DNA of 64,000 bases from Candidatus Latescibacterota bacterium (GTDB lineage Bacteria > Latescibacterota > UBA2968 > UBA8231): assembly GCA_965208105.1 (NCBI GenBank), contig OZ242318.1, forward strand, positions 2,464,001-2,528,000, read 5' to 3'. A model generated the notes under the pieces. That model was not told the origin of the DNA. It saw only the letters and a program-made list of their open reading frames with translations, and did no database searches. Below, one piece after another: positions 10,185 through 24,383 of this stretch; positions within the stretch are counted from its first letter, which is position 1; each line of letters starts with the position of its first letter. The position numbers and the translations under genes are program-made.

Positions 10185-11036
10185 GTGAGCCAGCCATCCC
10201 CCCTCATCTCCGCCCCGGACCTGTCCGCCCACCTGAACGAACCCGACTGGTGCATCCTCGACTGCCGCTTCGCCCTCGATGACCCCGGACAGGGCCGCCG
10301 CGACTACGCCGACGCCCACATCCCCAATGCCCTCTACGCCCACCTCGACGACGATCTCTCCGGACCGGTGGCCGCCGGCAGGACCGGGCGCCATCCGCTG
10401 CCCGCCCCTGCCAGCTTCGGCGCAACCCTTTCGCAATGGGGGATCGATTCGAAGGTGAATGTGGTGGCCTACGACTACGGAGATGCGACCATCGCGGCCC
10501 GGCTGTGGTGGATGCTGCGCTGGATGGGGCACGAGAAAGCCCTGGTGCTGGACGGCGGCTGGTCCGCCTGGCTGGCGATGGGCGGCGCCGTGACCGGCGA
10601 ACCGGGACGCCGCCGGGCGCGGTCCTGCCAGGTGCTTCCCAATCGCGCCATGGTGGCGACGAGCGCCGAGGTGGATGAAATCCGCGGACGCAGCGACTGG
10701 CTGCTGATCGACTCCCGCACCGAGGAGCGCTTCCGCGGCGAATCAGAGCCCATCGACCCCGTCGCCGGCCACATACCCGGCGCCGTCAACGCCCCGTTCA
10801 CGGCCAACCTCGGCAGCGACGGCCGCCTGCTGCCCGCTGCAGGGCTCAGGTCCCGTTTCTCCGGAATTCTCGGAGAGACCGCGCCCGACAGGGCCGTGTT
10901 CTATTGTGGATCCGGAGTGACGGCCGCCCACCAGCTTCTGGCCCTGGCGGTTGCCGGCGTGGAGGGGGCGCGTCTGTACGCGGGGTCCTGGAGCGAGTGG
11001 ATCGCCGATCCCCGGCGGCCCGTTGCCGGTCCGTAG
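10185..11036 (+). CDS. sseA: Tandem-domain rhodanese / 3-mercaptopyruvate sulfurtransferase
   Basis: HIPNA, GRHPLP, ARLWW, LDGG, GHIPGA, active-site YCGSGVTA, LYAGSWSEW. Confidence 0.9.
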   Translation: MSQPSPLISAPDLSAHLNEPDWCILDCRFALDDPGQGRRDYADAHIPNALYAHLDDDLSGPVAAGRTGRHPLPAPASFGATLSQWGIDSKVNVVAYDYGDATIAARLWWMLRWMGHEKALVLDGGWSAWLAMGGAVTGEPGRRRARSCQVLPNRAMVATSAEVDEIRGRSDWLLIDSRTEERFRGESEPIDPVAGHIPGAVNAPFTANLGSDGRLLPAAGLRSRFSGILGETAPDRAVFYCGSGVTAAHQLLALAVAGVEGARLYAGSWSEWIADPRRPVAGP

Positions 11037-11322
11037 CGATGATGCTGTGGCTGGAAGGACCAAGGTGCCTGGTCTTTGGATACTTTCAATGGCGCAAACT
11101 CCAGGCCGCGGATATCAAGTCAAGCCCAACTACAAATCTTCCCTGGAGTTTCCCCGGTTCGGGGGATAAATCTGGACTTGAAACTTCAAGAAGTACGTAG
11201 CCATTCCATACGTCTTCGATATACAATACACTCTCGAAGTGATTTCAAGATGAGGATCTCTCCATTTTTGGTGAAATTTTGGTGGAATCTATTCCTTCCT
11301 TTGAATTTCGCAAAAAAAGAAC

Positions 11323-11351
11323 TTGACCATTCCATTTTAGTAATCTAACTT
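11323..11351 (+). promoter_or_regulatory. Sigma70-like promoter (sense)
   Basis: TTGACC-17 nt-TAACTT preceded by an A-tract. Confidence 0.55.
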
Positions 11352-11356
11352 CGGTA

Positions 11357-11434
11357 CAAATAAAGGGCGGGGCGCCTTCCACGCGCCACCGCCCCAATAC
11401 TTAACCCTTTCGCAGGAGGGTTAAGTATGTATTC
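11357..11434 (-). ncRNA. Candidate ~80-nt cis-antisense sRNA (two hairpins, intrinsic terminator)
   Basis: Lies downstream of a minus-strand TTGACT-17-TAACTT promoter. Has a 12-bp hairpin ATACTTAACCCT/AGGGTTAAGTAT, then a GC-rich hairpin followed by TTTATTT. Its loop (CCTCCT) is complementary to an AGGAGG RBS on the plus strand. Confidence 0.5.
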
Positions 11435-11534
11435 TTTTCAAGTTACAACATCCTCGGGCAGAAGTCAAGCCCAAATTCCTTCCTCCTTCTTTTTATCTCA
11501 AACCACCTTCAGGGTACTTAGCGAGTTGGAATGA
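11427..11534 (+). CDS. 35-aa ORF or truncated gene start under antisense control
   Basis: AGGAGG-7 nt-ATG; MYSFQVTTSSGRSQAQIPSSFFLSQTTFRVLSELE*. The RBS and ATG lie in a hairpin. Confidence 0.3.
   Translation: MYSFQVTTSSGRSQAQIPSSFFLSQTTFRVLSELE
11440..11468 (-). promoter_or_regulatory. Sigma70-like promoter (antisense)
   Basis: Minus strand TTGACT (11468-11463)-17 nt-TAACTT (11445-11440). Confidence 0.55.
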
Positions 11535-11650
11535 CATGGCCAGGCGGGAGACCCACCCCGTCGCGGTCGTGAGGAATCCCGCCCGGCTTCTGTAGGGTTG
11601 AAGGATAAAGGGGAAACCTGTCATTTCATTTCAAAAAGAAGGGACCTATC

Positions 11651-12215
11651 GTGAAAAGCATAAAGAACCACCTGCCCAGAGAATGGGTAGGAATCAGCGT
11701 AATCCTGTGCTTTCTCGCCATTCTGTGTATGACTCTAAGCGTTCTCAATATCTGGGGATGAAGCGAAGACTATCCGTCCAGGGAACGCTGCTGGGATCCA
11801 GAATCTTCAAGGAAAAGCCCGTGGCCAAATCCATAGCCGGTCGTCCAATCTTCTCAATGGAATGGACGAGCAGGGACTTATGGCCGCCATTGGCAGCGCC
11901 GGGAACATGAAAAAGTACCCACAAGTGGCTGCTTTGGTGAGCAACGGCTACATCCGCTTGAAACTATTTTGATGAGGTGGCGCAGTTATGCAGTTAGAAC
12001 AACAAGACGGCGGAGTTGGGGAGATTCTTATCAGGCTCTCAGGAGTTGCCAACAAGCTGACCCTCCATTCAAGCACAGGATTGAAGCTATCGACATTGGA
12101 GGGCTGCTTCCTGAGAAATTCAAGGGGGACACTTTCCACATGGAAGCCCTCCTGCAAGTATCTGGGTCTTTCTACAGTCTCCAGAAATCGCAGGGCAAAT
12201 GGATGCAACGCCTAA
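11651..12215 (+). pseudogene. Probable decayed membrane-anchored protein gene
   Basis: GTG start with a TM segment (WVGISVILCFLAILCMTLSVLNIWG), then protein-like frames broken by frameshifts and stops. Confidence 0.3.
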
Positions 12216-12270
12216 CAGAGAGATCACAAATTTTATCAACAAAAGTAAAAATTTTAAGATGTTGTATTTT

Positions 12271-12801
12271 ATGAAGTTTATCAAGAAAATTTGTATTCAC
12301 TGCCTGGGTTGCCTGGTCATTGGTTTGATAGTGATCCTTAACCTCTCCTGTTCGCCTCCCAGTACCAGGCAATCGGCGCCGGAGTTCGTCTTTAAGAATC
12401 TGAATGGCGAGCCAATTTCGCTGAATTCGCAACGCGGAAGGATTGTGCTGCTCAATTTTTGGGCTACCTGGTGTTCTCCATGCAGACAGGAACTGCCAAT
12501 ACTTATTGACATTTTTAACAAATTCTCCGGAAAAAACTTCAACGTGTTGGGGGTGACGCTAAACTCCGGTGAACTTGCGATAGACCTTTGGATTGAAAAC
12601 TTCAAGGTCCCCTATCCCATTCTGGTGGCCAATGACACTGATAAAGAAATCCTGGACCAGTATGGTGTGGATAAGGGGATCCCAAGATCCGTTCTCATCG
12701 ATCGCGAGGGGTATATACACAAAACATACCGAGGGCTCATCGAGCTCGATGAATTTGAGAAGGACATCGACAACCTCCTGACCATGGAAAAGAAAATTTG
12801 A
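12271..12801 (+). CDS. TlpA/ResA-family thiol-disulfide oxidoreductase
   Basis: N-terminal hydrophobic anchor, APEF, LNFWATWCSPCRQELP, GIPRSVLIDREG. Start could be 12199, 12259 or 12271. Confidence 0.9.
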   Translation: MKFIKKICIHCLGCLVIGLIVILNLSCSPPSTRQSAPEFVFKNLNGEPISLNSQRGRIVLLNFWATWCSPCRQELPILIDIFNKFSGKNFNVLGVTLNSGELAIDLWIENFKVPYPILVANDTDKEILDQYGVDKGIPRSVLIDREGYIHKTYRGLIELDEFEKDIDNLLTMEKKI

Positions 12802-12809
12802 GTCCGCCG

Positions 12810-15614
12810 ATGCGAATTTTACTCCAACCTGCTCTCCACGTGCTTGGATGCATCATGCTCGCCGGTTGTACACCCGAACCCAAATTGGATAATGTGCGTC
12901 TCAGCTATTCGGTTCGGTTGGGTCCGGCTGGTTCCGATACGGTCTCGGTCGCCCTGAGCACCAGTGGTTTAAAAAACGAAAGCGTTCTTTTGAGGAGTTA
13001 TGAACCTCGGAATTTCATGCGTCTTTCAGGTCTTGAAGTTTTCGACTCCGATGGGAGTCGGATTCTCCATGAAACCATCGAGACTTATCCCGGCGGCTCC
13101 AAAGAGCCTCTGCTGCACTACCGCCTTACTCCGCCAGATCACAAAGAGACAAGGGTAGTCTATCGGGTGCGACCAGGCATGCAGATCGGGATGAAGCACG
13201 GCAGACATCCTACCCATGTCAGTGGCTACCTTGGCGAAGATTTCGGGCTGATATCTGGACGCAACCTCTTTCTTGTCCCGGATGCCCCTCTCGGTTTCGT
13301 GGAAGTCGAGGTCACAGCCCCATCCTCTTGGAGGGTAGTCAGCACCTGGCCGCAAATCTCGGAGACCAGCGAAGGTAATGCAGTTTTCCAGCCCCGTATC
13401 TTCGAAACACGAAAGCCAGAGGATCTGGTCAACGGCCTGCTTGGCCTTGGAAAGCTCGTCACCTATGAAGAAGAGGTTGAGGGCGCGACAATATCCGTTT
13501 CGGTTTACGAACGATGGCCGGAGCATTTCAGGCTGCACTTGGCTCGAAGTGGTTTCGCACTTTACCGCAATATTGCGACCATTTTCGATTCCCAGATCAA
13601 AGATCCCTACAACTTGATTTTTACCCCCAAGGGACCAGGAGTCCCCAGCATTGCGGTTGCTGCAACCGGTCATGGAAATGGCCGGGAAATGTGGCCGGCA
13701 TCGAAAGGCCGCTGGATCTCAGCAGCTGAAGAAATGGCCTATCGCTGGCTCCGCTATCTTCCCCACAGGATGGAGTTCAAGGTTGCAGATGATATGTGGT
13801 TCATCGACGGCACCGCCATGTATCTTGCTCTCCAAGCCTGTGAGGACGCAGGGATCATTGACGGCATCCGTCCGTACCTGGCAGAATCTTACCGTTCGTA
13901 CAACAGCAAGCGGTTGCGTTCGTTCACCGAGGATAAAACACCGGTTCCAGCGCGTCTCTACGACCAACCGGACCGGATCACCAAAGACCGAGGCCGGCGA
14001 ATTGGTCCTGCTCTGGCGCACCATTTAGATATGCTGATTCAAAGCCATTCGAATCGAAAATTCGATCTGACTACTGTCCTGAAACACGCAATGAAGAAAA
14101 GAGACAACTTATCCTTGCGTAATCTGGTTGCCGACGCGACGGGATTCGACCCGGAGGGCTTCTTCGAGCGGCATATCCACCCTCAGACCATGCCTATTAT
14201 CCCGTTGCATTTCACAAGTTCAAGCCTCCCGCTTGAGCCTGTGGTCCCACGTCTACCTCTATTTCGTTCGGGGAATGCAGCCGTGGTGGATACCATTTCT
14301 CTGGTCCTTACCGGCAAGACACAAGGTTATCTCGAGGCGTGCGGCTGCAAATTCAACATGTCGGGAGGTATCACGCGCCGTGCCCGACTAATCAGCCAGA
14401 TCCGGGAACGACGCCCCAATGTACTGGTACTCGACGCGGGCAATGCTTTCCCGACGGAGCAGGATGTTCCCTACATGGACAACCTGACATCAGCCGAGAT
14501 AGATGCTTACCTGGAGGCCATGAGATTAATGGGCTATCGCTTCGCCGCGATCAACGAGTACGAGCTGTACTATGGTGGCGAATTTCTGAAATCCAAGGTT
14601 GAGAGCACCGGATTCCCCTTTCTCGGCGCCAACGTATTCCACGGTGGGAAGCTTATAGCCGCTCCTGCGGTCTCGGTCCGGGTAGCCGGTTATCGCATCG
14701 GCTTTGTCGGTATCCTGGAAACCCAGGCCCGGTTCGAGCCTGGCCGCTTCGGAGACAATACCTCGGATATTGTCGTTGGGGATCCGATAACCGCAGTGCG
14801 ACAGTATCTCCCCGGGATCACCGAACGCAACGACTACGTGGGTGTCATCGGTGGTTTCAGCAAAGACCTGGTCTACAAACTGGTTCAGGAATTTCCCGAA
14901 CTCGACCTGGTTATCAATACCGGTCCGCACTTCAATATCACCGAAGACATCCTGAACGGAAGAGTAGTCCTCAAAAAGGATGTCCTCTATGGTTTTCTGC
15001 AAAACACGTTGGTGCTATACGCCGAAGGGGGGGTTTACGGTCTGCATCATGTCGACATCGGAGTCGACCAAAATGGACAACTTGGAAAAGTTGACATCAA
15101 CTATTTCGAAGTGGAGCGGCGAATCGAAGAAGACGAAGAAATGCGAGTTTTCCTGAACCGATTTTATTCAGACATGGCGAGTCGGGAGAGTCTGGTTTCC
15201 GGTCAGGTGGAACCCCTCTTCCGGTGGGATGACGTTCACGACCGCGGGTCCTACGTAGGCACGAATAAATGCGCGACGTGCCACGTTGGCCAACACCGGC
15301 AATGGTCGGCGACAGGCCATTCCACCGCCTACAAAACCCTGCTGGCCGTGCATCGCCAGTATGCTCCCAAGTGCGTCAAATGCCACGTGGTTGGCCTCGG
15401 CCGGTTATCGGGATTTGACATTTTGGAACCGAGCATGGATCTGGCCAACGTGCAGTGCGAGGTCTGCCATGGACCGGGCGAGCATCATGCACAAAGCCCG
15501 TCCAGCGCCAATATCAGGCGCAGTCCGAGTGAAGAGACCTGTACTGAGTGTCACAACCCTGAGCACGACGATGATTTCGACTATCTTCGAGATTGGAAGA
15601 TAGTGAGCCACTGA
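12810..15614 (+). CDS. Lipoprotein fusion: degenerate M61/M1-like peptidase + UshA-like metallophosphoesterase (CGC motif) + tetraheme cytochrome c (c554-like)
   Basis: LAGC lipobox; AAEEMAYRW...WFIDG; GYLEACGC...GGITRR...LVLDAGN...PFLGANV; four CxxCH motifs (CATCH, CVKCH, CEVCH, CTECH). Confidence 0.8.
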   Translation: MRILLQPALHVLGCIMLAGCTPEPKLDNVRLSYSVRLGPAGSDTVSVALSTSGLKNESVLLRSYEPRNFMRLSGLEVFDSDGSRILHETIETYPGGSKEPLLHYRLTPPDHKETRVVYRVRPGMQIGMKHGRHPTHVSGYLGEDFGLISGRNLFLVPDAPLGFVEVEVTAPSSWRVVSTWPQISETSEGNAVFQPRIFETRKPEDLVNGLLGLGKLVTYEEEVEGATISVSVYERWPEHFRLHLARSGFALYRNIATIFDSQIKDPYNLIFTPKGPGVPSIAVAATGHGNGREMWPASKGRWISAAEEMAYRWLRYLPHRMEFKVADDMWFIDGTAMYLALQACEDAGIIDGIRPYLAESYRSYNSKRLRSFTEDKTPVPARLYDQPDRITKDRGRRIGPALAHHLDMLIQSHSNRKFDLTTVLKHAMKKRDNLSLRNLVADATGFDPEGFFERHIHPQTMPIIPLHFTSSSLPLEPVVPRLPLFRSGNAAVVDTISLVLTGKTQGYLEACGCKFNMSGGITRRARLISQIRERRPNVLVLDAGNAFPTEQDVPYMDNLTSAEIDAYLEAMRLMGYRFAAINEYELYYGGEFLKSKVESTGFPFLGANVFHGGKLIAAPAVSVRVAGYRIGFVGILETQARFEPGRFGDNTSDIVVGDPITAVRQYLPGITERNDYVGVIGGFSKDLVYKLVQEFPELDLVINTGPHFNITEDILNGRVVLKKDVLYGFLQNTLVLYAEGGVYGLHHVDIGVDQNGQLGKVDINYFEVERRIEEDEEMRVFLNRFYSDMASRESLVSGQVEPLFRWDDVHDRGSYVGTNKCATCHVGQHRQWSATGHSTAYKTLLAVHRQYAPKCVKCHVVGLGRLSGFDILEPSMDLANVQCEVCHGPGEHHAQSPSSANIRRSPSEETCTECHNPEHDDDFDYLRDWKIVSH

Positions 15615-15716
15615 AATCGCGGCGGAGAAAGGAGACCATTTTATTGGCTTCAAAGCAGATCTGCCCATGTCGATCGGTAGGACGGTTAGCTCACACCTAA
15701 ATTCGGAGGAAGAATC

Positions 15717-15947
15717 ATGTCGCGTCGACTCAAGATAATTGCAGCTACCATGCTCGTTTTGGGACTGACCTACTTCATTCCTGCCACCAATCAACCAAAC
15801 AGCACCTACTCCGTGCTCGACCCAGTCTTGGTTGAACGGGCTGAAGCAGGTTATTGGAAAACGAACTATGTCTGCGTAAGTGGGGAGTATTGCGAGAGCA
15901 GTCCAGGTGAGTTCTGCTATTATATCGATCCGCTGCATTGCTACTAA
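15717..15947 (+). CDS. Cys-rich secreted peptide / RiPP-like precursor A
   Basis: GGAGG RBS; 45-aa leader ending ERAEAG; core YWKTNYVCVSGEYCESSPGEFCYYIDPLHCY; paralog at 19547. Confidence 0.85.
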   Translation: MSRRLKIIAATMLVLGLTYFIPATNQPNSTYSVLDPVLVERAEAGYWKTNYVCVSGEYCESSPGEFCYYIDPLHCY

Positions 15948-16019
15948 AGGCAAACAACTCACTTGAGGAAAGCTGTGGTGGTTTCTCCAGGTGAACGGCG
16001 GGTCGATCAGAGCACAATC

Positions 16020-16056
16020 GAGGGTCGGCAGCATGGCTGCCGACCCTCCTATTCTT
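16020..16056 (+). terminator. Hairpin (terminator or mRNA stabiliser) between peptide A and OM protein A
   Basis: GAGGGTCGGCAGC/GCTGCCGACCCTC stem followed by CTATTCTTT; conserved in unit 2. Confidence 0.55.
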
Positions 16057-16103
16057 TGTCCAATGGTTGCACTTATTACCAACAAGAAAAAAGTTGTACA
16101 AGG

Positions 16104-19040
16104 ATGAATTCCACAACCTGCTTGCGGATTTCTCTTTTCCTTCTAGTTATGAGTACCATGTTGGTCGAGGCTATTCCACCTCAGCGCGTAAGACTACCGG
16201 AGGTGACTCCTGGGCAATTCTACCTCAGAGCATCCCTGCCATCCTACCGCAACTTCGCATTTCAGCCCTACACCAACTACCCAGGGCACACAGCCTCTCG
16301 CTCTTCCGGGGTTCCGTATTCCGACTCGCCACGAGCCCTTTTCAACTCCATGGGAGATTATCTCGCCACAGGGTACGATCTCTACGACTGGAACGAGAAG
16401 CGCAATTCGGAAGCATCGTCCAAAAATGGTCAAATCTTTGGTAGCTCCATCTATAAAAACTCCAGGGATTTTACCTGGGCCTTTGGTGACCTTGTCGTGG
16501 CTCGAGACAGTCAGGGTTCGTGGGGATATAGTGCGATCGTGGGGGATGGCCTGATCGCGCGGTTTACCCCGCTCACTTTGTCCAGGGTCGATTTTGATGG
16601 GGTACGATTGGATCTGACCACCCCTTCGCTGCATGCCACCTTGCTGGGTTCTCGCCCGGAGCGTCCGGGAAATAGCAAGGCCATTGCCAAATGGATCGTT
16701 GAAAATACCGAGTATGCGGATGATTCTCCGCTGCTCCTGGGCGGCCGCTTGCAGGGAAACCTCGGCAGGTTGCAACTAGGAATGACCGGGGTCAACCTGC
16801 ACATGTTCCGCAGCACGGCGAGCGACAACACCCTGAAGGGCGTACTGCGCCCCAGCCAGCCTCTCATCGCATGGGTTCTCTTTCGTTTCACCGACGATTC
16901 TCCCACAGACGGTCGCGGAGGAGCCGTGGTCCAGGACCCCGTGCTCATTGTCAACGGCGTGTCCAGGTCCGACCTCCAGGCGCAGGTGATTCGCCATCGG
17001 GCAGGTACCCCATCACAGGTTGGAACCGTCTCTCAAGCTACCGGTGAATTCCGCCCTACTCCCTACTACGTTTTTCGCAGCAGTGTCGGTGGTTTTGAGT
17101 ACGCTCGTTTTTTCCGGAACCGGGAAATTCCTTTGTACGCCGACTATCTCTACCTCATCGACCACGATCGCGGGAAGGACGTGAGCAAGGATACCAACCT
17201 GGAGGAGTTGCTCAATCTGTTTAAGGTAGAGAAACCCAGCCGGATCCTGCATGCCAACGGTGACGACCAGCTTATCTACCTATTCGACGTTTCCCAAGAG
17301 CCCTACATCGAATCGGTGAAACTGGAGGTTGTTCTGTCCAACGACTACAAAGTCGACGTGGCTACCCTGATAGACGAGGACCTCCGCGCGCCCAAGCGCC
17401 ACGCCCAGTTCAAGACAACCTATTACCACACGACATTGCGGGCTAAGGGCAACGTCCAGGACCGCTCCAACCTTCAACGGGTGAAACTGCATGTCGGAGA
17501 GAACACTGCCCTGTTCACCTACAGCGCCGATGCTCATCTAAGCCTTGTGGGTATGGACGTGCATGGAGAAGTGGCTCGATCACGGCGCTACTCCCGCTAC
17601 CCGGCCGAAGCCGCAGAGACACCTGTTTTTGAAAGGGGTGCTCGCTCCAACGATAGGGGAACGGCCTTCTACATTAATGCCATTGGCAAACTGAGCCGAG
17701 GCCGCTTGGGGCTGGAGTACTTCTCTATGCAGCCGGATTTCACCACCGAGGTTCGCTACCATCTTCCCGCCGATGCGGACCATACTCAACGCCATCTTCG
17801 CGGTGTGAGGAACCGCACCATGTACTGGAAACTCGTGCAGGACAACGATGACGGCGACCGATTCGCCGATACGCGCGTAGGCCAACCTCTGAGGAATATC
17901 CCCGATGGTTCGACCACCGACCCCGACGGGGTTTTCCCCGGCCGCGACGAGGACCGAGACGGGATTCCTGACACCAATCGCAACTTCAACGGTATTCCCG
18001 ACTACGAGGAACCATTCCTTATCTTCGACGTGGAACCCAACGAGTATGTTTATGGATTGGACCGCAACCATAACGACGAGCCGGATGTCCGCGAAGACGA
18101 TCTCCATCCCGACTATCCCTACTACCCCGACCAGAAAGGATATCACCTTTTCCTGCAGCTCGGACCGAGGTCCGGGTGGTCGGCGGGCATCGGCCGCTAT
18201 GCGGTGGAGGAAATCGCCGGTGGCGGGCGCAATCGCTCCACCTATGCCCTGCTAGCCTTCCGCGCCAGGGGTACCAAGGAGCACTGGCGACTCTTTCTTG
18301 AAAACCACCTGCGGCGGGTTGAAGACGATATTGCCGATGAGTTCGGCGTTCAAGTGGAGCAACCCCAGACCGGCCTCGAAGAGATCCCCCTGGTCTTCGT
18401 AAGCCAGATCCAGCCCGACCCCCTGTTCTATCGGGACAGTTACGTCAACGAGACCTATCTCGAAGCGGAGCTGCAGCCGTGGTCCGCCCTGCGGTGGGTG
18501 AACAAGTGGCGGCTACGGCTCAACTGGCAACAGGGTGGAAACCGACAGCGCGCCAGAAGGCTGGACTACTGGACCCTGGTCCAGCGCGCCGAGTATTCTG
18601 CAACTTGGGGAAAGTTAAAGGTACGGCCGCAGTGCAAAGTCTTGCTCCTGCATCACGTGGACCAGGATGCGGACCGCCTGATTACCGGTGCCTATGCCCG
18701 TCGCACCTTGCGCTCAGAACTCAGCCTCATCCCCATTTTGCGCATCGAGTATCCCATTCTCCGGCGCACCACCTTGAGGATCGGGGTGCAAGGTTGGGGG
18801 CCGCTTCCCTACCAAAGGCATGACCGGGTACGGGAGCGCAACAATCTCGAGCGCCGCACCGCCTTTGCCACCCTTGCCAACCGCTCCGTCTACCGCGGAT
18901 ACGATCTTCACACCATCATCGGTCTCAAAGGGGACAGCATGGACTACAACAACCGGTTGCGGCGGGGAGAGGAGTACGATACCTGGTCGTTCTTTGTGCG
19001 TGTCTTGACCGGATTCACCGAGTTCGGACCACTCATATAG
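16104..19040 (+). CDS. Large secreted/outer-membrane protein A with acidic Ca-binding-like repeats (uncharacterised family)
   Basis: Signal peptide (..VEA-IPP); DNDDGD/DEDRDGIPD/NFNGIPD/DRNHNDEPD repeats; amphipathic beta-strand C-terminal half ending FFVRVLTGFTEFGPLI. Confidence 0.8.
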   Translation: MNSTTCLRISLFLLVMSTMLVEAIPPQRVRLPEVTPGQFYLRASLPSYRNFAFQPYTNYPGHTASRSSGVPYSDSPRALFNSMGDYLATGYDLYDWNEKRNSEASSKNGQIFGSSIYKNSRDFTWAFGDLVVARDSQGSWGYSAIVGDGLIARFTPLTLSRVDFDGVRLDLTTPSLHATLLGSRPERPGNSKAIAKWIVENTEYADDSPLLLGGRLQGNLGRLQLGMTGVNLHMFRSTASDNTLKGVLRPSQPLIAWVLFRFTDDSPTDGRGGAVVQDPVLIVNGVSRSDLQAQVIRHRAGTPSQVGTVSQATGEFRPTPYYVFRSSVGGFEYARFFRNREIPLYADYLYLIDHDRGKDVSKDTNLEELLNLFKVEKPSRILHANGDDQLIYLFDVSQEPYIESVKLEVVLSNDYKVDVATLIDEDLRAPKRHAQFKTTYYHTTLRAKGNVQDRSNLQRVKLHVGENTALFTYSADAHLSLVGMDVHGEVARSRRYSRYPAEAAETPVFERGARSNDRGTAFYINAIGKLSRGRLGLEYFSMQPDFTTEVRYHLPADADHTQRHLRGVRNRTMYWKLVQDNDDGDRFADTRVGQPLRNIPDGSTTDPDGVFPGRDEDRDGIPDTNRNFNGIPDYEEPFLIFDVEPNEYVYGLDRNHNDEPDVREDDLHPDYPYYPDQKGYHLFLQLGPRSGWSAGIGRYAVEEIAGGGRNRSTYALLAFRARGTKEHWRLFLENHLRRVEDDIADEFGVQVEQPQTGLEEIPLVFVSQIQPDPLFYRDSYVNETYLEAELQPWSALRWVNKWRLRLNWQQGGNRQRARRLDYWTLVQRAEYSATWGKLKVRPQCKVLLLHHVDQDADRLITGAYARRTLRSELSLIPILRIEYPILRRTTLRIGVQGWGPLPYQRHDRVRERNNLERRTAFATLANRSVYRGYDLHTIIGLKGDSMDYNNRLRRGEEYDTWSFFVRVLTGFTEFGPLI

Positions 19041-19365
19041 TGGATTCAGCCGCTGCTTTTGCCAGGATGTCGCGCTCGGTGTGCAACTGCTTGATCTGGC
19101 GACGTAAGCGTCGTATTTCGGCGCGTTCGGAGGTGGTCAAGCCATCGTGGCGCCGGCCGCTGTCGAGGTCGGCCTGTTTTACCCAGGTGTGGATCGTCTG
19201 AGCGGAGGGCCCGAACTCTTTGGCCAAGGAGCCTGGCGAGCGTCCGGAGCGGACCAGATCGACCATCTGCTGGCGAAATTCGGGGGGATAGGGAATACGT
19301 GATTTAGGCATGGGGGGCTCCTTTTCATCAAGTGATAAGGTACCCGCCAAACCGGGTCAACTCCA
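19033..19365 (-). mobile_element. IS3-family remnant: left end and orfA only (orfA 19033..19311)
   Basis: End starts TGGAGTTGACCCGGTTT; orfA MPKSRIPYPPEFRQQMV...ERDILAKAAA is cut at the orfA/orfB junction; no orfB. Confidence 0.85.
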
Positions 19366-19546
19366 GACCTGTACTGAGAGTCACAACCCTGAGCACGACG
19401 ATGATTTCGACTATCTGCGGAATTGGAAGATAGTGAGCCACTGAAACCGCGGCGGAGAAAGGAGACCATTTTATTGGCTTCAAAGCAGATCTGCCCATGC
19501 TATCTACAGCACTGTTAACCCACCACGAAAATGGGAGGGAAAAACC

Positions 19547-19771
19547 ATGACTCGTCGACGCAAGATCATAGCCGCTACCATGCTCGTTCTGGGTCTGACT
19601 TACTTCATTCCGGCAACCAACCAACCAAACAGCGCGTACTCCGTGCTCGATCCAATCTTGGTTGAACGGGCTGAGGCAGGATGGCAATTCCATAAGATCT
19701 GTCGGTCGGGTAGCTGCTGCCCTGAACAAAATGAATTCTGCTATGAAGTCGATGAAGATACGTGCTATTAA
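19547..19771 (+). CDS. Cys-rich secreted peptide / RiPP-like precursor B
   Basis: GGAGG RBS; leader 41/45 identical to precursor A; core WQFHKICRSGSCCPEQNEFCYEVDEDTCY. Confidence 0.85.
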   Translation: MTRRRKIIAATMLVLGLTYFIPATNQPNSAYSVLDPILVERAEAGWQFHKICRSGSCCPEQNEFCYEVDEDTCY

Positions 19772-19963
19772 AGTCGAGTAGAGCTGAAGTCACTACGTGT
19801 GGTCGAAAGTCTCTACCGCCGGAGATATGGCACAACCTTCCATTTTTGTTATTCCAGGGTGCACCTATTTTAATTGTTGACACCAATCGCCTTTCGATCA
19901 GGGGAAATGATGTCAACAATTTCTGGTCCCGGAACTAACGTTCACCAAGCGCAGGCGCGCCTT

Positions 19964-19997
19964 GGAGGGTCGGCATATACTGTCGACCCTCCTTTAT
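19964..19997 (+). terminator. Hairpin between peptide B and OM protein B
   Basis: GGAGGGTCGGCA/TGTCGACCCTCC followed by TTTAT. Confidence 0.55.
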
Positions 19998-20050
19998 GAG
20001 ATAGTTGCAAAATAGTGCGCGTTTTGCAAACAGACAGGATCAGTCCAGAC

Positions 20051-22981
20051 ATGCACTCTACAACCTGCTCGCGGCTTTTCCTACTCACCGTCGTTTGCTA
20101 TTCCATACCGACCCAGGCAACTCCGCCCCAGAGCGTCGAATTACCCGAGGTAATTGCCGGACGTTTCTATCTGCAGATGCCGCGGCCGGCCTATCGCAAC
20201 TTCGCCTTTCAGCCCTACACTAACTACCCAGGCCATACCATGTCGCGCTCCACCAAGTTGTACTCGGACGCACCGCAAGTCTTTTATGGAAAAATGGGGG
20301 CCTTTCTTTTCACAGGCTACGATCTCTATGCCTGGTCTGAACGACGCGAGCCTCAACCCGTGGCCGCAAAGGGTCGGCTCTACGGTAGTTCCATTTTCAG
20401 GAACCGCAGTGTATTTGAATTCGCCTTCGACAGCCTGGTTGTAGCTCGGGACAGTCAAAGTTCGTGGGGATACAGTGCGATTGTGGGGGATGCGCTGATC
20501 GCGCGGTTTACGCCGCTGACCTTGTCCAAGGTCGATTTTGATGGGGCCCGGTTTGACCTGGCCACCCCCTCGCTGCAAGCCACCTTGCTAGGTTCCCGCC
20601 TGGAGCGTCCGGGGTTTACCCTGGGACTGGCCAGGTGGCTCGTGGATGACACCGAGTTTGCGGATGATTCCCCGCTTCTCCTGGGCGGCCGCCTACAGGG
20701 AAAACTCGGCAGATTGCAACTCGGATTGACGGGCGTCAACCTTCACATGTTCCACAGCACCAGGAGCGGCAACAGCCTGAAGGGCGTGCTGCGCCCCAGC
20801 CAACCTCTCATAAGTTGGGTCCTCTTTCGATTCACCGACGACTCTCCAGCAGACGGTCGCGGCGGAGTCGTAGTCCAGGACCCCGTGCTCATTGTCAACG
20901 GGTTGCCCCGGTCTGACCTCCAAGCGCAGGTGATTCGCCATCGGGCAAATGCCCCCTCCCAGGTTGGAACCTTCTCTCAAAATACCGGTGAATTCCGCAC
21001 CACTCCCTATTACCTTTTTCGCGGCAGGGTCGGAGTTTTCAACTACACTCGTTTTTACCGGAACCGGGAAGTACCCTTGTACGCCGACTATCTCTACCGC
21101 ATCGACCACGCCCGCGGGAAGGACGTGAGCGCGGACACCAATCTGGAAGGGTTGCTCCGTCTGTTTCGGTTAGAGCCATCCAACGGGATCCTGCGGGCCG
21201 ACGGTGACGACCAGCTCGTCTACCTGTTCGATCTTTCGCAAGAGCCCTACGTCGAATCAGTGGCACTGGAGGCCCTGCTGGCCAACGACTATAAGGTAGA
21301 TGTGGCTACTTTGGTCGACGAAGACGTCCATGCCTCCAAGCGCCACACTCAGTTCAAAACGACCTATTACCACACGGCGCTGAGGGCAAGGGGCAACGTG
21401 CAGGACCGCTCCAATCTGCAACGGGTGCGACTGGAGGTCGGCGAAAACACCGCCCTGTTCACCTACAGCGCCGATGTCCACCTGAGCCTTGTGGGCATGG
21501 AAGTGCATGGAGAAGTGGCCCGCTCGCGGCGCTACTCCCGCTATCCGGCCGAAGCCGCAGAGAAACCATTTTTTGAACAAGGCCCGCGGTCCAGCGAAGA
21601 GGGAATGGCCTACTTCGTAAATGCTACTCGAAATTTTGGTCACATCCTCTTGGGGTTGGAGTACTTCTCGATGCAGCCGGATTTCACCACCGAGGTCCGC
21701 TATCATCTTCCCTTAGAGGGCCAGTTTTTTCAACGCCACGTCCAAGGTGTGAAAAATCGCACCATGTATTGGCAACTGGTCCAGGACAACGACGACGGCG
21801 ACCGCTTCACCGATACGCGCGTAGGTGACCCGTTGGATATCTCCGATGGCTCAACAATCGACTCCGACGGGGTTTTCCCGGGCCGTGACGAGGATCGCGA
21901 CGGTATCCCCGATACAAATCGCAACTTCAACGGGATACCCGACTACGAAGAACCCTTTCTCATGTTCAACGTGGAACCGAACGAGTACGTCTACGGGTTG
22001 GACCGCAACCACAACGACGAGCCGGATGTCCGCGAGGACGATCTCCGTCCCGACTACCCCTACTATCCCGACCAGCAAGGATATCATCTCTTCCTGCAGT
22101 TCGGACCCCGGTCCGGGTGGTCGGCAAGTGCAGGCCGTTACGGGGTCGAGGAGGTGGCCGGGTTTGGGCGCAATCGCTCCACCTATGCCCTGCTGACCTT
22201 CCGCGGCAGGGACACCAGGGAGCGCTGGCGCATTTTCCTTGAAAACCACTTGCGACGGGTTGAGGACGATATTGCCGATGAGTTCGCCGTTCAGGTGGAG
22301 CAACCCCAAGTGGGCGGCGACGAGGTTGCGCTCGTCTTCGTCAGTCAGATCCGGCCGGATCCCCTGTCCTACCGCGACAGCTTTGTCAACGAGACCTATC
22401 TCGAAGGGGAACTGAAGCCCTGGTCCACCCTGCGATGGGTGAACAAGTGGCGGTTGCGGGTCAACTGGCAATCGAAGAGAAACCGTCAGCGCGCCAAAAG
22501 ACTGGACTACTGGACCCTGGTCCAGCGCGCCGAGTACACTGCGACTTGGGGCAAGCTCAAGGTACGGCCGCAGTGCAAAGTCTTGCTCCTGCATCACGTG
22601 GACCAGGATGCGGACCGCCTGATTACCGGTGCCTATTCCAGCCGCACCCTGCGCTCGGAGCTCAGCCTTATCCCCATCCTGCGCATCGAGTATCCCCTTC
22701 TCCGGCGTACTACCCTGCGGCTTGGGGTGCAAGGTTGGGGACCGTTGCCCTACAAGAGACATGACCGGGTACGGAATGGCAACAATCTCGAGCGCCGCAC
22801 CGCCTTTTTCACCCTGGCCACACGCTCTTCCTACCGCGGATACGATCTTCACACTATCATCGGTATCAAAGGCGACAGCCAGGACTACGACGACCGGTTG
22901 CGGCGGGGAGAGGGGTACGATACCTGGTCGTTTTTTGTGCGGGTCTTGACCGGATTCACTGAGTTCGGACCACTCATATAG
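20051..22981 (+). CDS. Large secreted/outer-membrane protein B, paralog of 16104..19040
   Basis: Collinear over its full length, same acidic repeats and identical C-terminus. Confidence 0.8.
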   Translation: MHSTTCSRLFLLTVVCYSIPTQATPPQSVELPEVIAGRFYLQMPRPAYRNFAFQPYTNYPGHTMSRSTKLYSDAPQVFYGKMGAFLFTGYDLYAWSERREPQPVAAKGRLYGSSIFRNRSVFEFAFDSLVVARDSQSSWGYSAIVGDALIARFTPLTLSKVDFDGARFDLATPSLQATLLGSRLERPGFTLGLARWLVDDTEFADDSPLLLGGRLQGKLGRLQLGLTGVNLHMFHSTRSGNSLKGVLRPSQPLISWVLFRFTDDSPADGRGGVVVQDPVLIVNGLPRSDLQAQVIRHRANAPSQVGTFSQNTGEFRTTPYYLFRGRVGVFNYTRFYRNREVPLYADYLYRIDHARGKDVSADTNLEGLLRLFRLEPSNGILRADGDDQLVYLFDLSQEPYVESVALEALLANDYKVDVATLVDEDVHASKRHTQFKTTYYHTALRARGNVQDRSNLQRVRLEVGENTALFTYSADVHLSLVGMEVHGEVARSRRYSRYPAEAAEKPFFEQGPRSSEEGMAYFVNATRNFGHILLGLEYFSMQPDFTTEVRYHLPLEGQFFQRHVQGVKNRTMYWQLVQDNDDGDRFTDTRVGDPLDISDGSTIDSDGVFPGRDEDRDGIPDTNRNFNGIPDYEEPFLMFNVEPNEYVYGLDRNHNDEPDVREDDLRPDYPYYPDQQGYHLFLQFGPRSGWSASAGRYGVEEVAGFGRNRSTYALLTFRGRDTRERWRIFLENHLRRVEDDIADEFAVQVEQPQVGGDEVALVFVSQIRPDPLSYRDSFVNETYLEGELKPWSTLRWVNKWRLRVNWQSKRNRQRAKRLDYWTLVQRAEYTATWGKLKVRPQCKVLLLHHVDQDADRLITGAYSSRTLRSELSLIPILRIEYPLLRRTTLRLGVQGWGPLPYKRHDRVRNGNNLERRTAFFTLATRSSYRGYDLHTIIGIKGDSQDYDDRLRRGEGYDTWSFFVRVLTGFTEFGPLI

Positions 22982-23312
22982 TGGATTCAGCCGCTGCTTT
23001 TGCCAGGATGTCGCGCTCGGTGCGCAACTGCTTGATCTGGCGACACAGGCGTCGAATTTCGGCGTGTTCGGTGGTGGTCAAGCCATCGTGGCGCCGGCCG
23101 CTGTCGAGGTCGGCCTGTTTTACCCAGGTGTGGATCGTCTGAGCGGAGGGCCCGAACTCTTTGGCCAGGGAGCCTGGCGAGCGTCCGGAGCGGACCAGCT
23201 CGACCATCTGCTGGCGCTGGCGAAATTCGGGGGGATAGGGAATACGTGATTTAGGCATGGGGGGCTCCTTTTCATCAAGTGATAAAGTACCCACCAAACC
23301 GGGTCAACTCCA
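22974..23312 (-). mobile_element. IS3-family remnant, second copy (orfA 22974..23258)
   Basis: Near-identical to 19033-19365 with a 6-bp insertion; truncated at the same point. Confidence 0.85.
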
Positions 23313-23427
23313 AATGCCAAAAAGGAACCTCCAACGTCTGCTGGAGGAGACGTGCGAGCGTCGACTTTCCTGCACTTGATGCGCCGTTGATGAGAATGAT
23401 CTTGCCCTGTTCTCGATCGTTATCCAA
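23313..23427 (-). pseudogene. 5' fragment of a chloramphenicol-phosphotransferase-like P-loop kinase, cut by IS3
   Basis: TTG-DNDREQGKIILINGASSAGKSTLARLLQQTLEVPFWH, ending at the IS3 terminus. Confidence 0.7.
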
Positions 23428-23468
23428 GTGTATCAAGAATCCTATTTCAGCGTTCTTTGACCCAATTC

Positions 23469-23558
23469 ACATAACGGTTTCACGGTTTACGAACCTGCGT
23501 AGCGGGTTGCCGAAGGCCAAGGAGCGCAGCGACGAAGCGAAAACCGGACGTGTTATGT
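23469..23558 (-). other. Integron attC-like recombination site
   Basis: Minus strand ACATAAC ... GTTATGT with an internal imperfect palindrome (CGGTTT/AAACCG); 90 bp; directly after the GNAT stop and before the next gene. Confidence 0.7.
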
Positions 23559-23573
23559 GTTCGGGCGATCTCT

Positions 23574-24383
23574 TCATTCAAATTTGCCAAATGCGATCTT
23601 GTAACTGTACGGATCAATAAAGCCCAGTTTCTCTGCAACTCTAATCGAGGGCTTGTTGTCCTCCCAGCAGTCCCAGTACGGACTCAACCCCAGTCCTTTA
23701 GCTTGTCTCGCTACCTGGGCGCCAACAGTAGTAGCGATGCCTTTACCTTGATAGTCCTCTATCGTTTCGATGCCCATCCCACAGTGCTTCTCGCTCACAT
23801 ATTCCGATGTGCACCAACAGATAACTGAAGTTCCATGCAGCATTGCGAATCCAAATCCCCGCTCGAGAAAGGTATCGATGGACGGCCAGCCACCCAGAAT
23901 CTCGTCGAACACCGAGTCAAGATGACCAACTTTGCTATCAAGGAGCTGTCGATCTATTTGCCGTAGGGAAAACCCCGTTGGGACAACTGGAAAGCTGGCC
24001 GGCGACCTGTCGGAAAGGGCACAATAGATCCTCCTATCGACGTTTTGCTCGAGCGGACCGAAAACAGTGTCGATTATCGAGCTCCAGATTTCCGGTGAAT
24101 AGTGCAACTTGAAGAAACCGATTCCACGCGAGCGGCATTCAGGTGCGATCTCGGCTGAGAAGATCTCTGCAAGTTGCCTGTTCGTCTCTTCGTTGTTGGC
24201 CGCGCCAGAGAGGTGGATATTCCGGCCTTCGTTGGCTAGCACAGTGTTTGGCCTGAACGGGTCGTCTACCCACACTCTCGCCGGGGTCAGCCCCAAAATG
24301 ATACTGCTCCCAACCAGACGGAAGATCGGTGTGTCAAGGAGCGGTTGGATCGCGGCAAGATGCTCATGCTCTAGCTGTCTCAT
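23574..24383 (-). CDS. GNAT family acetyltransferase (cassette-like)
   Basis: GIETIEDYQGKGIAT, PYWDCWEDNKPSIRVAEKLGF. Confidence 0.9.
   Translation of the reverse strand: MRQLEHEHLAAIQPLLDTPIFRLVGSSIILGLTPARVWVDDPFRPNTVLANEGRNIHLSGAANNEETNRQLAEIFSAEIAPECRSRGIGFFKLHYSPEIWSSIIDTVFGPLEQNVDRRIYCALSDRSPASFPVVPTGFSLRQIDRQLLDSKVGHLDSVFDEILGGWPSIDTFLERGFGFAMLHGTSVICWCTSEYVSEKHCGMGIETIEDYQGKGIATTVGAQVARQAKGLGLSPYWDCWEDNKPSIRVAEKLGFIDPYSYKIAFGKFE

Follow-up and report, generated by a model that had tools for sequence, protein, structure and literature searches.

In E. coli, the heat-stable enterotoxin STa is made as a pre-pro-peptide of about 72 residues, whose C-terminal core of six cysteines is oxidised in the periplasm. 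Animal-toxin precursors of the conopeptide type are laid out as a signal, a pro-region and a short mature peptide, and in the methylamine dehydrogenase system MauG and the thioredoxin-like accessory MauD take part in the haem-dependent periplasmic maturation of a cysteine-rich small subunit. Here we describe a locus with likenesses to all three, found in a stretch of 64,000 nucleotides (hereafter the window) from the genome of a sponge-associated Candidatus Latescibacterota bacterium (GenBank assembly GCA_965208105.1, contig OZ242318.1, positions 2,464,001 to 2,528,000 of the forward strand). Two of its genes, pep1 and pep2, encode short precursors in which a nearly invariant leader precedes a hypervariable, cysteine-bearing core; they belong to a small peptide family, and just upstream of pep1 lie genes for a ResA-like thioredoxin and for a multihaem, putative lipoprotein of 938 residues. 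The explanation that we prefer, and to which we give about even credence, is that these are secreted pre-pro-peptides matured by the linked haem/thiol redox module.

Comparison With Described Systems

The resemblance to STa lies in the size of the precursor, in the combination of a Sec signal with a pro-region, and in a C-terminal core whose usual cysteine count in the family corresponds to three pairs. However, no Pfam enterotoxin family matched at E-values up to 10, and while the STa core is conserved and dependent on DsbA, the core described here is hypervariable and DsbA was not found in the genome. Conopeptide-type precursors share with these peptides the order of the parts as well as a conserved front followed by a hypervariable core on a cysteine framework. 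Those precursors are eukaryotic, though, and have no sequence relation to the present peptides, which are bacterial and chromosomal, belong to a module of foreign base composition and have a haem/thiol lipoprotein as linked neighbour; nothing indicates an animal toxin role. As in the MauG system, a c-type haem protein and a thioredoxin-like helper stand beside a small, cysteine-rich and presumably exported polypeptide. Sequence likeness to that system goes no further than a weak MauD hit of the ResA-like protein (E 0.0023; 17 bits against a cut-off of 189 bits), and the target of MauG is a conserved enzyme subunit, whereas here it would be a variable peptide.

An earlier note, made from the window's sequence alone, had seen in the conserved leader and variable core the hallmark of precursors of toxins and of ribosomally synthesised and post-translationally modified peptides (RiPPs). 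The leader/core logic is indeed that of RiPP precursors and holds across the family, but the known RiPP classes found no support. The bufferins likewise combine an N-terminal signal peptide with cysteines, which in their case are modified (PMC11626156), but the present genome (a single contig, estimated to be 94% complete) has no MNIO: PF05114 gave no hit in the whole genome and did give one in a control genome. Bacteriocins with double-glycine leaders differ in that the leader here ends in A-x-A and in that the genome yielded no C39 peptidase (PF03412), which was detected in seven control genomes. Pfam scans of 18 open reading frames (ORFs) of the window and 41 ORFs of related loci contained no RiPP-class maturase, the 938-residue protein being a mere candidate outside the known classes, and no RiPP precursor family of Pfam or NCBIfam matched the peptides. 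Every test for membership in a named RiPP or bacteriocin class failed. A language-model neighbour cluster pointed to NVEALA (PF14055), a family of small Bacteroidota proteins that made up 14% of the cluster's members, at a score of 0.81 that is under the lead level of 0.9. The peptides had no hidden Markov model match to NVEALA at E-values up to 10, a search for the family matched neither this genome nor any control genome, and no paper with the term was found in a narrow literature search.

A Constrained Leader and a Divergent Core

The earlier note had reported two ORFs on the plus strand, and both are present where it placed them (Table 1). Their leaders are identical at 41 of 45 positions, the substitutions from pep1 to pep2 being S2T, L5R, T30A and V37I, and both end in AEAG. 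The pattern W-x5-C-x-S-G-x(1-2)-C-x5-E-F-C-Y-x2-D-x3-C-Y-stop that had been proposed as the scaffold of the cores fits the two of them. The abruptness of the divergence after AEAG is also seen in the DNA, where a strong match across the leader ends at 15850/19680 and then collapses with indels: identity is 84% in the 157-nt repeat D3 (15694-15850) and about 47% in the core (46 differences in 87 aligned bases).

pep1 and pep2 are genuine genes, as follows from the low leader omega given below, from the Shine-Dalgarno-like motifs (GGAGG lies 7-8 nt 5′ of the ATG in both), from the conserved stem-loops, and from homologues in a second genus and in metagenomes. The latter include P0003, a near-identical variant of pep2. 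A stem sequence is common to the stem-loops after the two genes, while the intergenic DNA around them is unalignable. An Rfam scan of 11000-24000 gave no match at E <= 1.

Selection was estimated by the Nei-Gojobori method. Over the 45 codons of the leader, nonsynonymous divergence (dN) is 0.041 and synonymous divergence (dS) is 0.568 (omega 0.07); the pair of downstream genes for ~980-residue barrel proteins, compared over 976 codons, gives a dN of 0.139 and a dS of 0.566 (omega 0.25). The leader is under purifying selection and forms an island of protein-level constraint within an old, diverged cassette. Since its dS equals that of the flanking barrel genes, conservation acts on the protein and does not reflect a recent copy or conversion tract. 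In the core (29 aligned codons), dN reaches 0.76 (pN 0.478) and synonymous sites are saturated (pS 0.78, 14.7 sites), so that the comparison of leader and core omegas suggested by the earlier note can be completed for the leader and not computed for the core. Diversifying selection on the core, which had also been proposed, is plausible but unproven: core dN is about 1.3 times the flanking dS of 0.57, which is within sampling error, and these data cannot separate positive selection from near-neutral change outside the scaffold or from a greater age of the core segments. Among three pep1-type sequences (that of the window, P0002 and P0024), pairwise differences number 4, 5 and 1 of 45 in the leader and 10, 13 and 11 of 31 in the core (Fisher p 0.015, 0.0026, and 0.00013).

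A Small Family of Three-Part Peptides

Neither peptide matched a Pfam or NCBIfam family. When 1.84 billion representative proteins were searched with a profile, 13 were hit: eight small members, three that proved on inspection to be unrelated repeat proteins, and two long proteins not inspected. Three further members and a cluster mate came from a library of 5.8 billion proteins. Of 168 genomes in the phylum, the profile matched only the present one (two copies), G016 (three), G026 (one) and G032 (one), the last three being all the genomes of one other genus. In G001, a genome of the same genus as the present one, there was no peptide-family match and the module was not found. With about 19 sequences in total, of which P0009 and the third G016 copy look degenerate, the family is rare and limited to some Latescibacterota. 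A contig scan with a five-row alignment recovered G026 again; another of its matches, in a metagenome-assembled genome of a myxococcote (Myxococcota), was rejected as a LysR-type regulator in which YSVLDPVLVE occurs by chance. A narrow literature search found no paper on cysteine-rich peptides of Latescibacterota, which is no proof that the family is undescribed.

The peptides can be divided into a Sec-type, signal-like N-terminus, a conserved pro-segment and a hypervariable core braced by cysteines. In pep1 and pep2 the N-terminus, read by eye, has the basic residues RRLK and then the hydrophobic IIAATMLVLGLTYFI, a run of about 15 hydrophobic residues that ends in TYFIP. The layout is common to the family: the basic residues lead into a hydrophobic stretch that closes with (T/S)(Y/S)FIP, after which come a polar linker, 6-12 residues long, and a tyrosine present in every member. 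This tyrosine opens a fixed stretch of 14 residues after the linker, Y-S-V-L-D...A-x-A, which is predicted to be helical, and an alanine lies exactly 14 residues beyond it in 17 of 18 sequences, mostly inside A-x-A. The leader ends in A-x-A family-wide, and the extra glycine is found in the window clade only. Tat export was considered and set aside, as twin arginines occur in the window clade and not family-wide, so that Sec is more likely. Candidate cleavage sites in pep1 and pep2 are at residue 23 (between IPA and T) and at residue 44/45 (between AEA and G). The second, at which the earlier note had drawn the boundary of leader and core, does have the form A-x-A, but 23 residues separate it from the hydrophobic stretch; the 45 residues thus amount to more than a plain signal peptide and are better described as a signal plus a pro-segment.

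Cores are 29-47 residues long across the family and have six cysteines in 10 of 18 sequences, at spacings of roughly 3-5, 4-10, 7-9, 6-13, and 4-7. The refutation for which the earlier note had allowed did not come about: homologues keep the cysteine scaffold, with three columns invariant and the fourth retained in 15 of 16 sequences, and none of them has an in-frame stop. Members of the window clade have four or five cysteines, the first and the sixth having been lost together, as would be expected if these two pair. In an alignment of 16 sequences, leader identity exceeded core identity in 107 of 120 pairs (means 36 and 22%), and core identity fell to 13% without the shared cysteines. An AlphaFold 2 (AF2) model built on the 16-row alignment has the core as a beta-hairpin (strands 46-54 and 58-69; predicted local distance difference test (pLDDT) 86-93) with Cys53 and Cys59 flanking the turn, besides a low-confidence helix at 6-20 and a helix at 35-43. 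The core cysteines would presumably pair in disulfides. A fold search of 48,161 chains with the model gave no match at Z >= 2, and Foldseek matches had E > 5.

A Haem/Thiol Module Linked to the Peptides

The 938-residue protein is encoded by a single-copy gene that ends 102 nt before pep1. Its N-terminus is lipobox-like by eye, as is that of the ResA-like protein (LNLSC), which scored 107 bits against the NCBIfam ResA model PRK03147 (cut-off 170 bits). Residues 26-480 of the 938-residue protein group with M61/M1 clusters (ESM Atlas 0.94-0.97); M61_N reaches 17 bits here, under its cut-off, and 24.6 bits in an orthologue. The zinc motif of M61 peptidases, HExxH, is absent in nine of nine members of the 938-residue family. 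The C-terminal 440 residues scored 239.6 bits against NCBIfam NF041198 (UshA_like_PCGU), under the cut-off of 275 bits, and the protein departs from NF041198 in its additional M61-like domain of 480 residues without HExxH. Where the NF041198 motif sits, all nine members have C515-G-C517 (LEACGCK). Four CxxCH haem-c motifs are c554-like (Pfam Cytochrome_C554, 50.5 bits), and sequence matches in the PDB were to c554 and to N-domains of 5′-nucleotidases. The peptide, ResA-like and 938-residue products all look extracytoplasmic. A complex prediction for the 938-residue protein (residues 26-938) with pep1 (24-76) gave a score of 0.02, which weighs neither way on binding.

From its distribution, this periplasm-facing redox module of two lipoproteins appears to be the conserved partner of the peptide family. 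Among 76 genomes of the bacterial family, near-full-length orthologues of the 938-residue protein were found only in the present genome (G000), G032 and G016 (two copies), and every one is encoded 0.1-3.4 kb from a family peptide. The 5.8-billion-protein library held only five other homologues, three of which match a family peptide in contig size and source (9961, Logan; 7589, JGI; 32828, ENA). Neither the 938-family alignment nor P0022 turned up a locus in scans of JGI metagenome contigs. In locus L051 of G016, a ResA-like homologue directly precedes the 938-like gene.

The ResA-938-peptide module has a GC content of 0.49-0.52, with the peptide at 0.49, as compared to 0.58 for the barrel gene and 0.616 for the genome. 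The low-GC stretch (11037-15950), which comprises an ORF-poor region of 1.16 kb, the ResA-like gene, the 938-residue gene and pep1, is probably a horizontally acquired module, and we read it as having landed next to a resident barrel gene. A hairpin with a 14-bp stem lies at 11397-11428. The peptide locus of G026 is surrounded by transposase and restriction genes. Of the two 938-like genes in G016, one is split (L050 4020-6383 and G016:C1:2861373-2861732), and the G016 peptide beside the other (L051 7611-8363) loses the cysteine pattern after the third cysteine and runs into the next ORF; both could be decaying copies or assembly errors.

Searches of the whole genome for DsbA, DsbB and VKOR gave no hit, while control genomes gave hits. 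A cysteine-rich exported peptide would therefore need an oxidase of its own. The genome also encodes c-type cytochromes and several TlpA-like thioredoxins.

Two Alleles in a Tandem Duplication

pep1 and pep2 are alleles that were brought side by side by a tandem duplication of 3.9 kb, which the earlier note had missed. Unit 1 spans 15535-19364 and unit 2 runs from 19365 to about 23312; each consists of the last 77 nt of the 938-residue gene plus 57 nt, a peptide gene, a ~980-residue gene and an IS3-type orfA fragment of 324-330 nt, of which more copies are found elsewhere in the genome. The ends of the units are 95-97% identical and the interior 74-85%, and tblastn recovers a 38-residue remnant of the 938-residue protein in unit 2. 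In run X7, from another metagenome, a contig of 3786 nt joins 15669 to 19538 and has the 938-residue gene followed by a pep2-type gene, with no unit 1. This indicates that pep1 and pep2 are alternative alleles of one locus and did not diverge in place. A contig of 1624 nt in run X8 has a pep1-type gene with a DNA identity of only 79%. The allele-specific cassette begins 48 nt ahead of the start codon and takes in most of the barrel gene (15669 to ~18950), and 15535-23312 seems to have arisen by duplication, after which alleles were replaced via the conserved flanks. Contigs near-identical to parts of the region were found in sponge metagenomes (runs from two studies) and in a marine metagenome (one run), a count that leaves out the best-matching runs, possibly the source sample; no RNA run was among the sequencing runs listed.

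Proposed Maturation and Its Alternatives

In the maturation that we propose, the peptide would be exported and its conserved pro-segment would dock on the M61-like domain, which lost its zinc motif and may bind peptides without cutting them. The Cys-Gly-Cys motif and the haem relay would then oxidise the core cysteines to disulfides or to another cysteine-based link, the leader would be cut at A-x-A, and a small folded core would be released. Export, the cleavage site, the disulfides, the role of the 938-residue protein and the biological target are what we infer here. As the core differs between co-existing strains and the leader does not, the product would act outside the cell, most likely in antagonism or recognition between strains of the sponge community. 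A bolder form of this proposal, which we consider rather unlikely, is a leader-guided, haem-driven periplasmic counterpart of RiPP biosynthesis, wherein the dead M61 domain grips the pro-segment while Cys-Gly-Cys and the four haems introduce disulfides or different cysteine cross-links into the core, yielding strain-specific peptides in a sponge microbiome.

Several observations weigh against maturation by the redox module. Some concern the peptides themselves: pep2 and P0018 have an odd number of cysteines (five), the cores, with net charges of -6 to +3, are for the most part acidic, whereas antimicrobial hairpins are typically cationic, the distance of the A-x-A site from the hydrophobic stretch is atypical for signal peptidase I, and no dedicated protease was identified. 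Others concern linkage. No 938-like gene lies within 8 kb of the peptide at L049 in G016 or of that in G026, and the search for the 938-residue gene found none in G026; a ResA-like gene is present in only two of the four linked genomic loci; and the co-occurrences of peptide and 938-like protein in metagenomes (n = 3) rest on equal contig size and source. In addition, cytochrome c maturation could be all that the ResA-like protein serves beside a multihaem protein, and a genome without DsbA and DsbB may form few periplasmic disulfides at all.

In the Sox pathway, the UshA-family enzyme SoxB pairs with SoxY, a small cysteine carrier. By analogy, the peptide could be a membrane-anchored or periplasmic partner of the 938-residue enzyme, such as a sulfur or selenium carrier or an electron relay, with the N-terminus as its permanent anchor. 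The hydrophobic segment ending in TYFIP is conserved across genera, beyond what a simple signal peptide would need, and a rhodanese, a two-domain sulfurtransferase, is encoded on the same strand at 10185-11036, ~1.2 kb upstream of the ResA-like gene. The 938-residue protein itself probably belongs to the UshA-like family with a cysteine or selenocysteine redox motif, which is among the selenoprotein families listed, with the motif CxU and with no peptide partner mentioned, in the available text of PMC13188914. However, a docking carrier should keep its working end, and here the cysteine-bearing end is the most variable (13% identity outside the cysteines) and differs between strains. The metal-binding residues of the UshA fold also appear, by eye, to be replaced in the 938-family alignment. 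Overall, we judge a carrier role to be unlikely.

Small subunits rich in cysteine are modified in the periplasm by haem enzymes such as MauG, and the peptides could likewise be true RiPP precursors, in which the 938-residue protein or an unrecognised enzyme installs non-disulfide links (thioether or Cys-aromatic) and the 45-residue leader serves as recognition element. The contrast between leader and core identity would fit, as would the tight linkage to a multi-domain redox protein whose peptidase-like domain has no HExxH and probably binds peptides. Conversely, the scanned neighbours include no known maturase class, neither a precursor family in Pfam or NCBIfam nor an MNIO nor a C39 peptidase was found, and an even, co-varying number of cysteines fits plain disulfides. 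This explanation seems improbable to us.

Outer-Membrane Barrels and Other Neighbours

The genes of ~980 residues that follow pep1 and pep2 are predicted to encode outer-membrane beta-barrels. The AF2 model of barrel 1 is nearly all beta (pLDDT 63; predicted template modelling score 0.61), and Foldseek matched it to MtrB, SlpA, TonB-dependent receptors and LptD, with E-values between 1e-7 and 1e-4 but TM-scores as low as 0.2-0.3; among the matches listed at E <= 0.001, nearly all are outer-membrane barrels, porins included, at TM-scores of 0.2-0.4. The barrel family has 34 paralogues in the genome, often in tandem. All 36 genomes searched in the same bacterial family have it, and none of 24 from three sister families does. 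Among the neighbours that recur beside the paralogues are proteins with a type IX secretion tail, DUF6785/DUF6784 proteins and sulfatases.

A barrel could be the functional partner of the peptide, as exporter, receptor or immunity protein, the two forming a co-diversifying pair with the 938-residue gene as a mere neighbour. The strain-specific cassette covers the peptide and most of the barrel, the two barrels are most diverged in their first 200 codons (dN 0.33 and 0.24), and a stem-loop lies between peptide and barrel genes. However, no family peptide is found upstream of the other 32 paralogues or of the orthologous barrel of G001, the peptides of the second genus precede unrelated 320-residue proteins with no barrel, and the GC content of the barrel gene is near that of the genome while that of the peptide is not. 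The barrel is thus probably not the peptide's partner, though both travel as one allelic cassette, and we hold the pairing to be very doubtful. A porin-cytochrome complex, considered because MtrB was the top fold hit of the barrel, was rejected as the general role: the 938-residue gene being single-copy, the other 32 paralogues have no 938-like cytochrome next to them.

Downstream of every peptide gene in the second genus stand one, two or three genes, arrayed in tandem, for secreted proteins of 320 residues (Table 1). These have no family match and no likeness to the barrel, and share a start HGH-GDR-(V/I)-(Y/I)-P and a DGDHDG motif. Their sole relative in the present genome is a distant CBM9-like protein (L087 1936-2910).

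Lastly, that pep1 and pep2 are chance frames or decaying remnants in duplicated DNA is hardly credible: they are short, unannotated in any library and overlapped by longer ORFs on the opposite strand (15405-16085 over pep1 and 19328-19729 over pep2), but those ORFs differ between the units (226 and 133 residues) and the first overlaps the real 938-residue gene, while omega in the leader of the peptides is 0.07 (dS 0.57), the two genera share the cysteines and the 14-residue motif, and the core has a confident predicted fold.

Table 1. Coordinates of the peptide genes, the linked module and neighbouring features (positions in the window, or in the named locus of the second genus).
Feature	Position	Strand	Description
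ResA/TlpA-like thiol-disulfide oxidoreductase	12199-12801	+	200 aa, WCSPC; Pfam AhpC-TSA 82 bits, Redoxin 72 bits
938-aa putative lipoprotein	12798-15614	+	M61/M1-like domain, UshA-like domain, four CxxCH
Shine-Dalgarno-like GGAGGA before pep1	15705-15710	+	read directly from the sequence
pep1	15717-15947	+	76 aa; signal-like part, residues 1-23, at 15717-15785
pep1 pro-segment	15786-15851	+	residues 24-45, conserved, A-E-A-G at end
pep1 core	15852-15944	+	residues 46-76, 31 aa, 4 Cys
Terminator-like stem-loop after pep1	16020-16048	+	13-bp stem, then CTATTCTTTG; -28.1 kcal/mol, z -5.6
Barrel 1	16101-19040	+	979 aa, predicted outer-membrane beta-barrel, Asp-rich repeat stretch
IS3-type transposase orfA fragment, right end of unit 1	19041-19364	-	Pfam HTH_Tnp_1 32.5 bits; ~95% identical to 22982-23312
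Left end of unit 2	19365-19498	+	remnant: 77 nt from the end of the 938-aa gene and 57 nt downstream; 96% identical to 15535-15668
Shine-Dalgarno-like GGGAGGG before pep2	19533-19539	+	sequence reading
pep2	19547-19771	+	74 aa; leader, residues 1-45, at 19547-19681
pep2 core	19682-19768	+	residues 46-74, 29 aa, 5 Cys
Stem-loop after pep2	19964-19992	+	-24.7 kcal/mol, z -4.3
Barrel 2	20051-22981	+	976 aa, 78% identical to barrel 1
Second IS3 orfA fragment, right end of unit 2	22982-23312	-	repeat comparison
320-aa protein locus	L048 5206-8277
320-aa protein locus	L049 5317-8315
320-aa protein locus	L050 7380-8357
320-aa protein locus	L051 8302-9330

Significance for Latescibacterota

Bioactive peptides from sponge symbionts are highly valued, and the Latescibacterota are an uncultured group. 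The locus described here defines a small, unnamed family of presumably exported peptides braced by cysteines, with cores that vary between strains and with ties to a rare haem/thiol lipoprotein. If the 938-residue protein does mature these peptides, it would represent a new enzyme logic for making stable mini-peptides and would give a function to the UshA-like family with its cysteine or selenocysteine motif. Even otherwise, cores of this length are short enough to be synthesised and tested directly.

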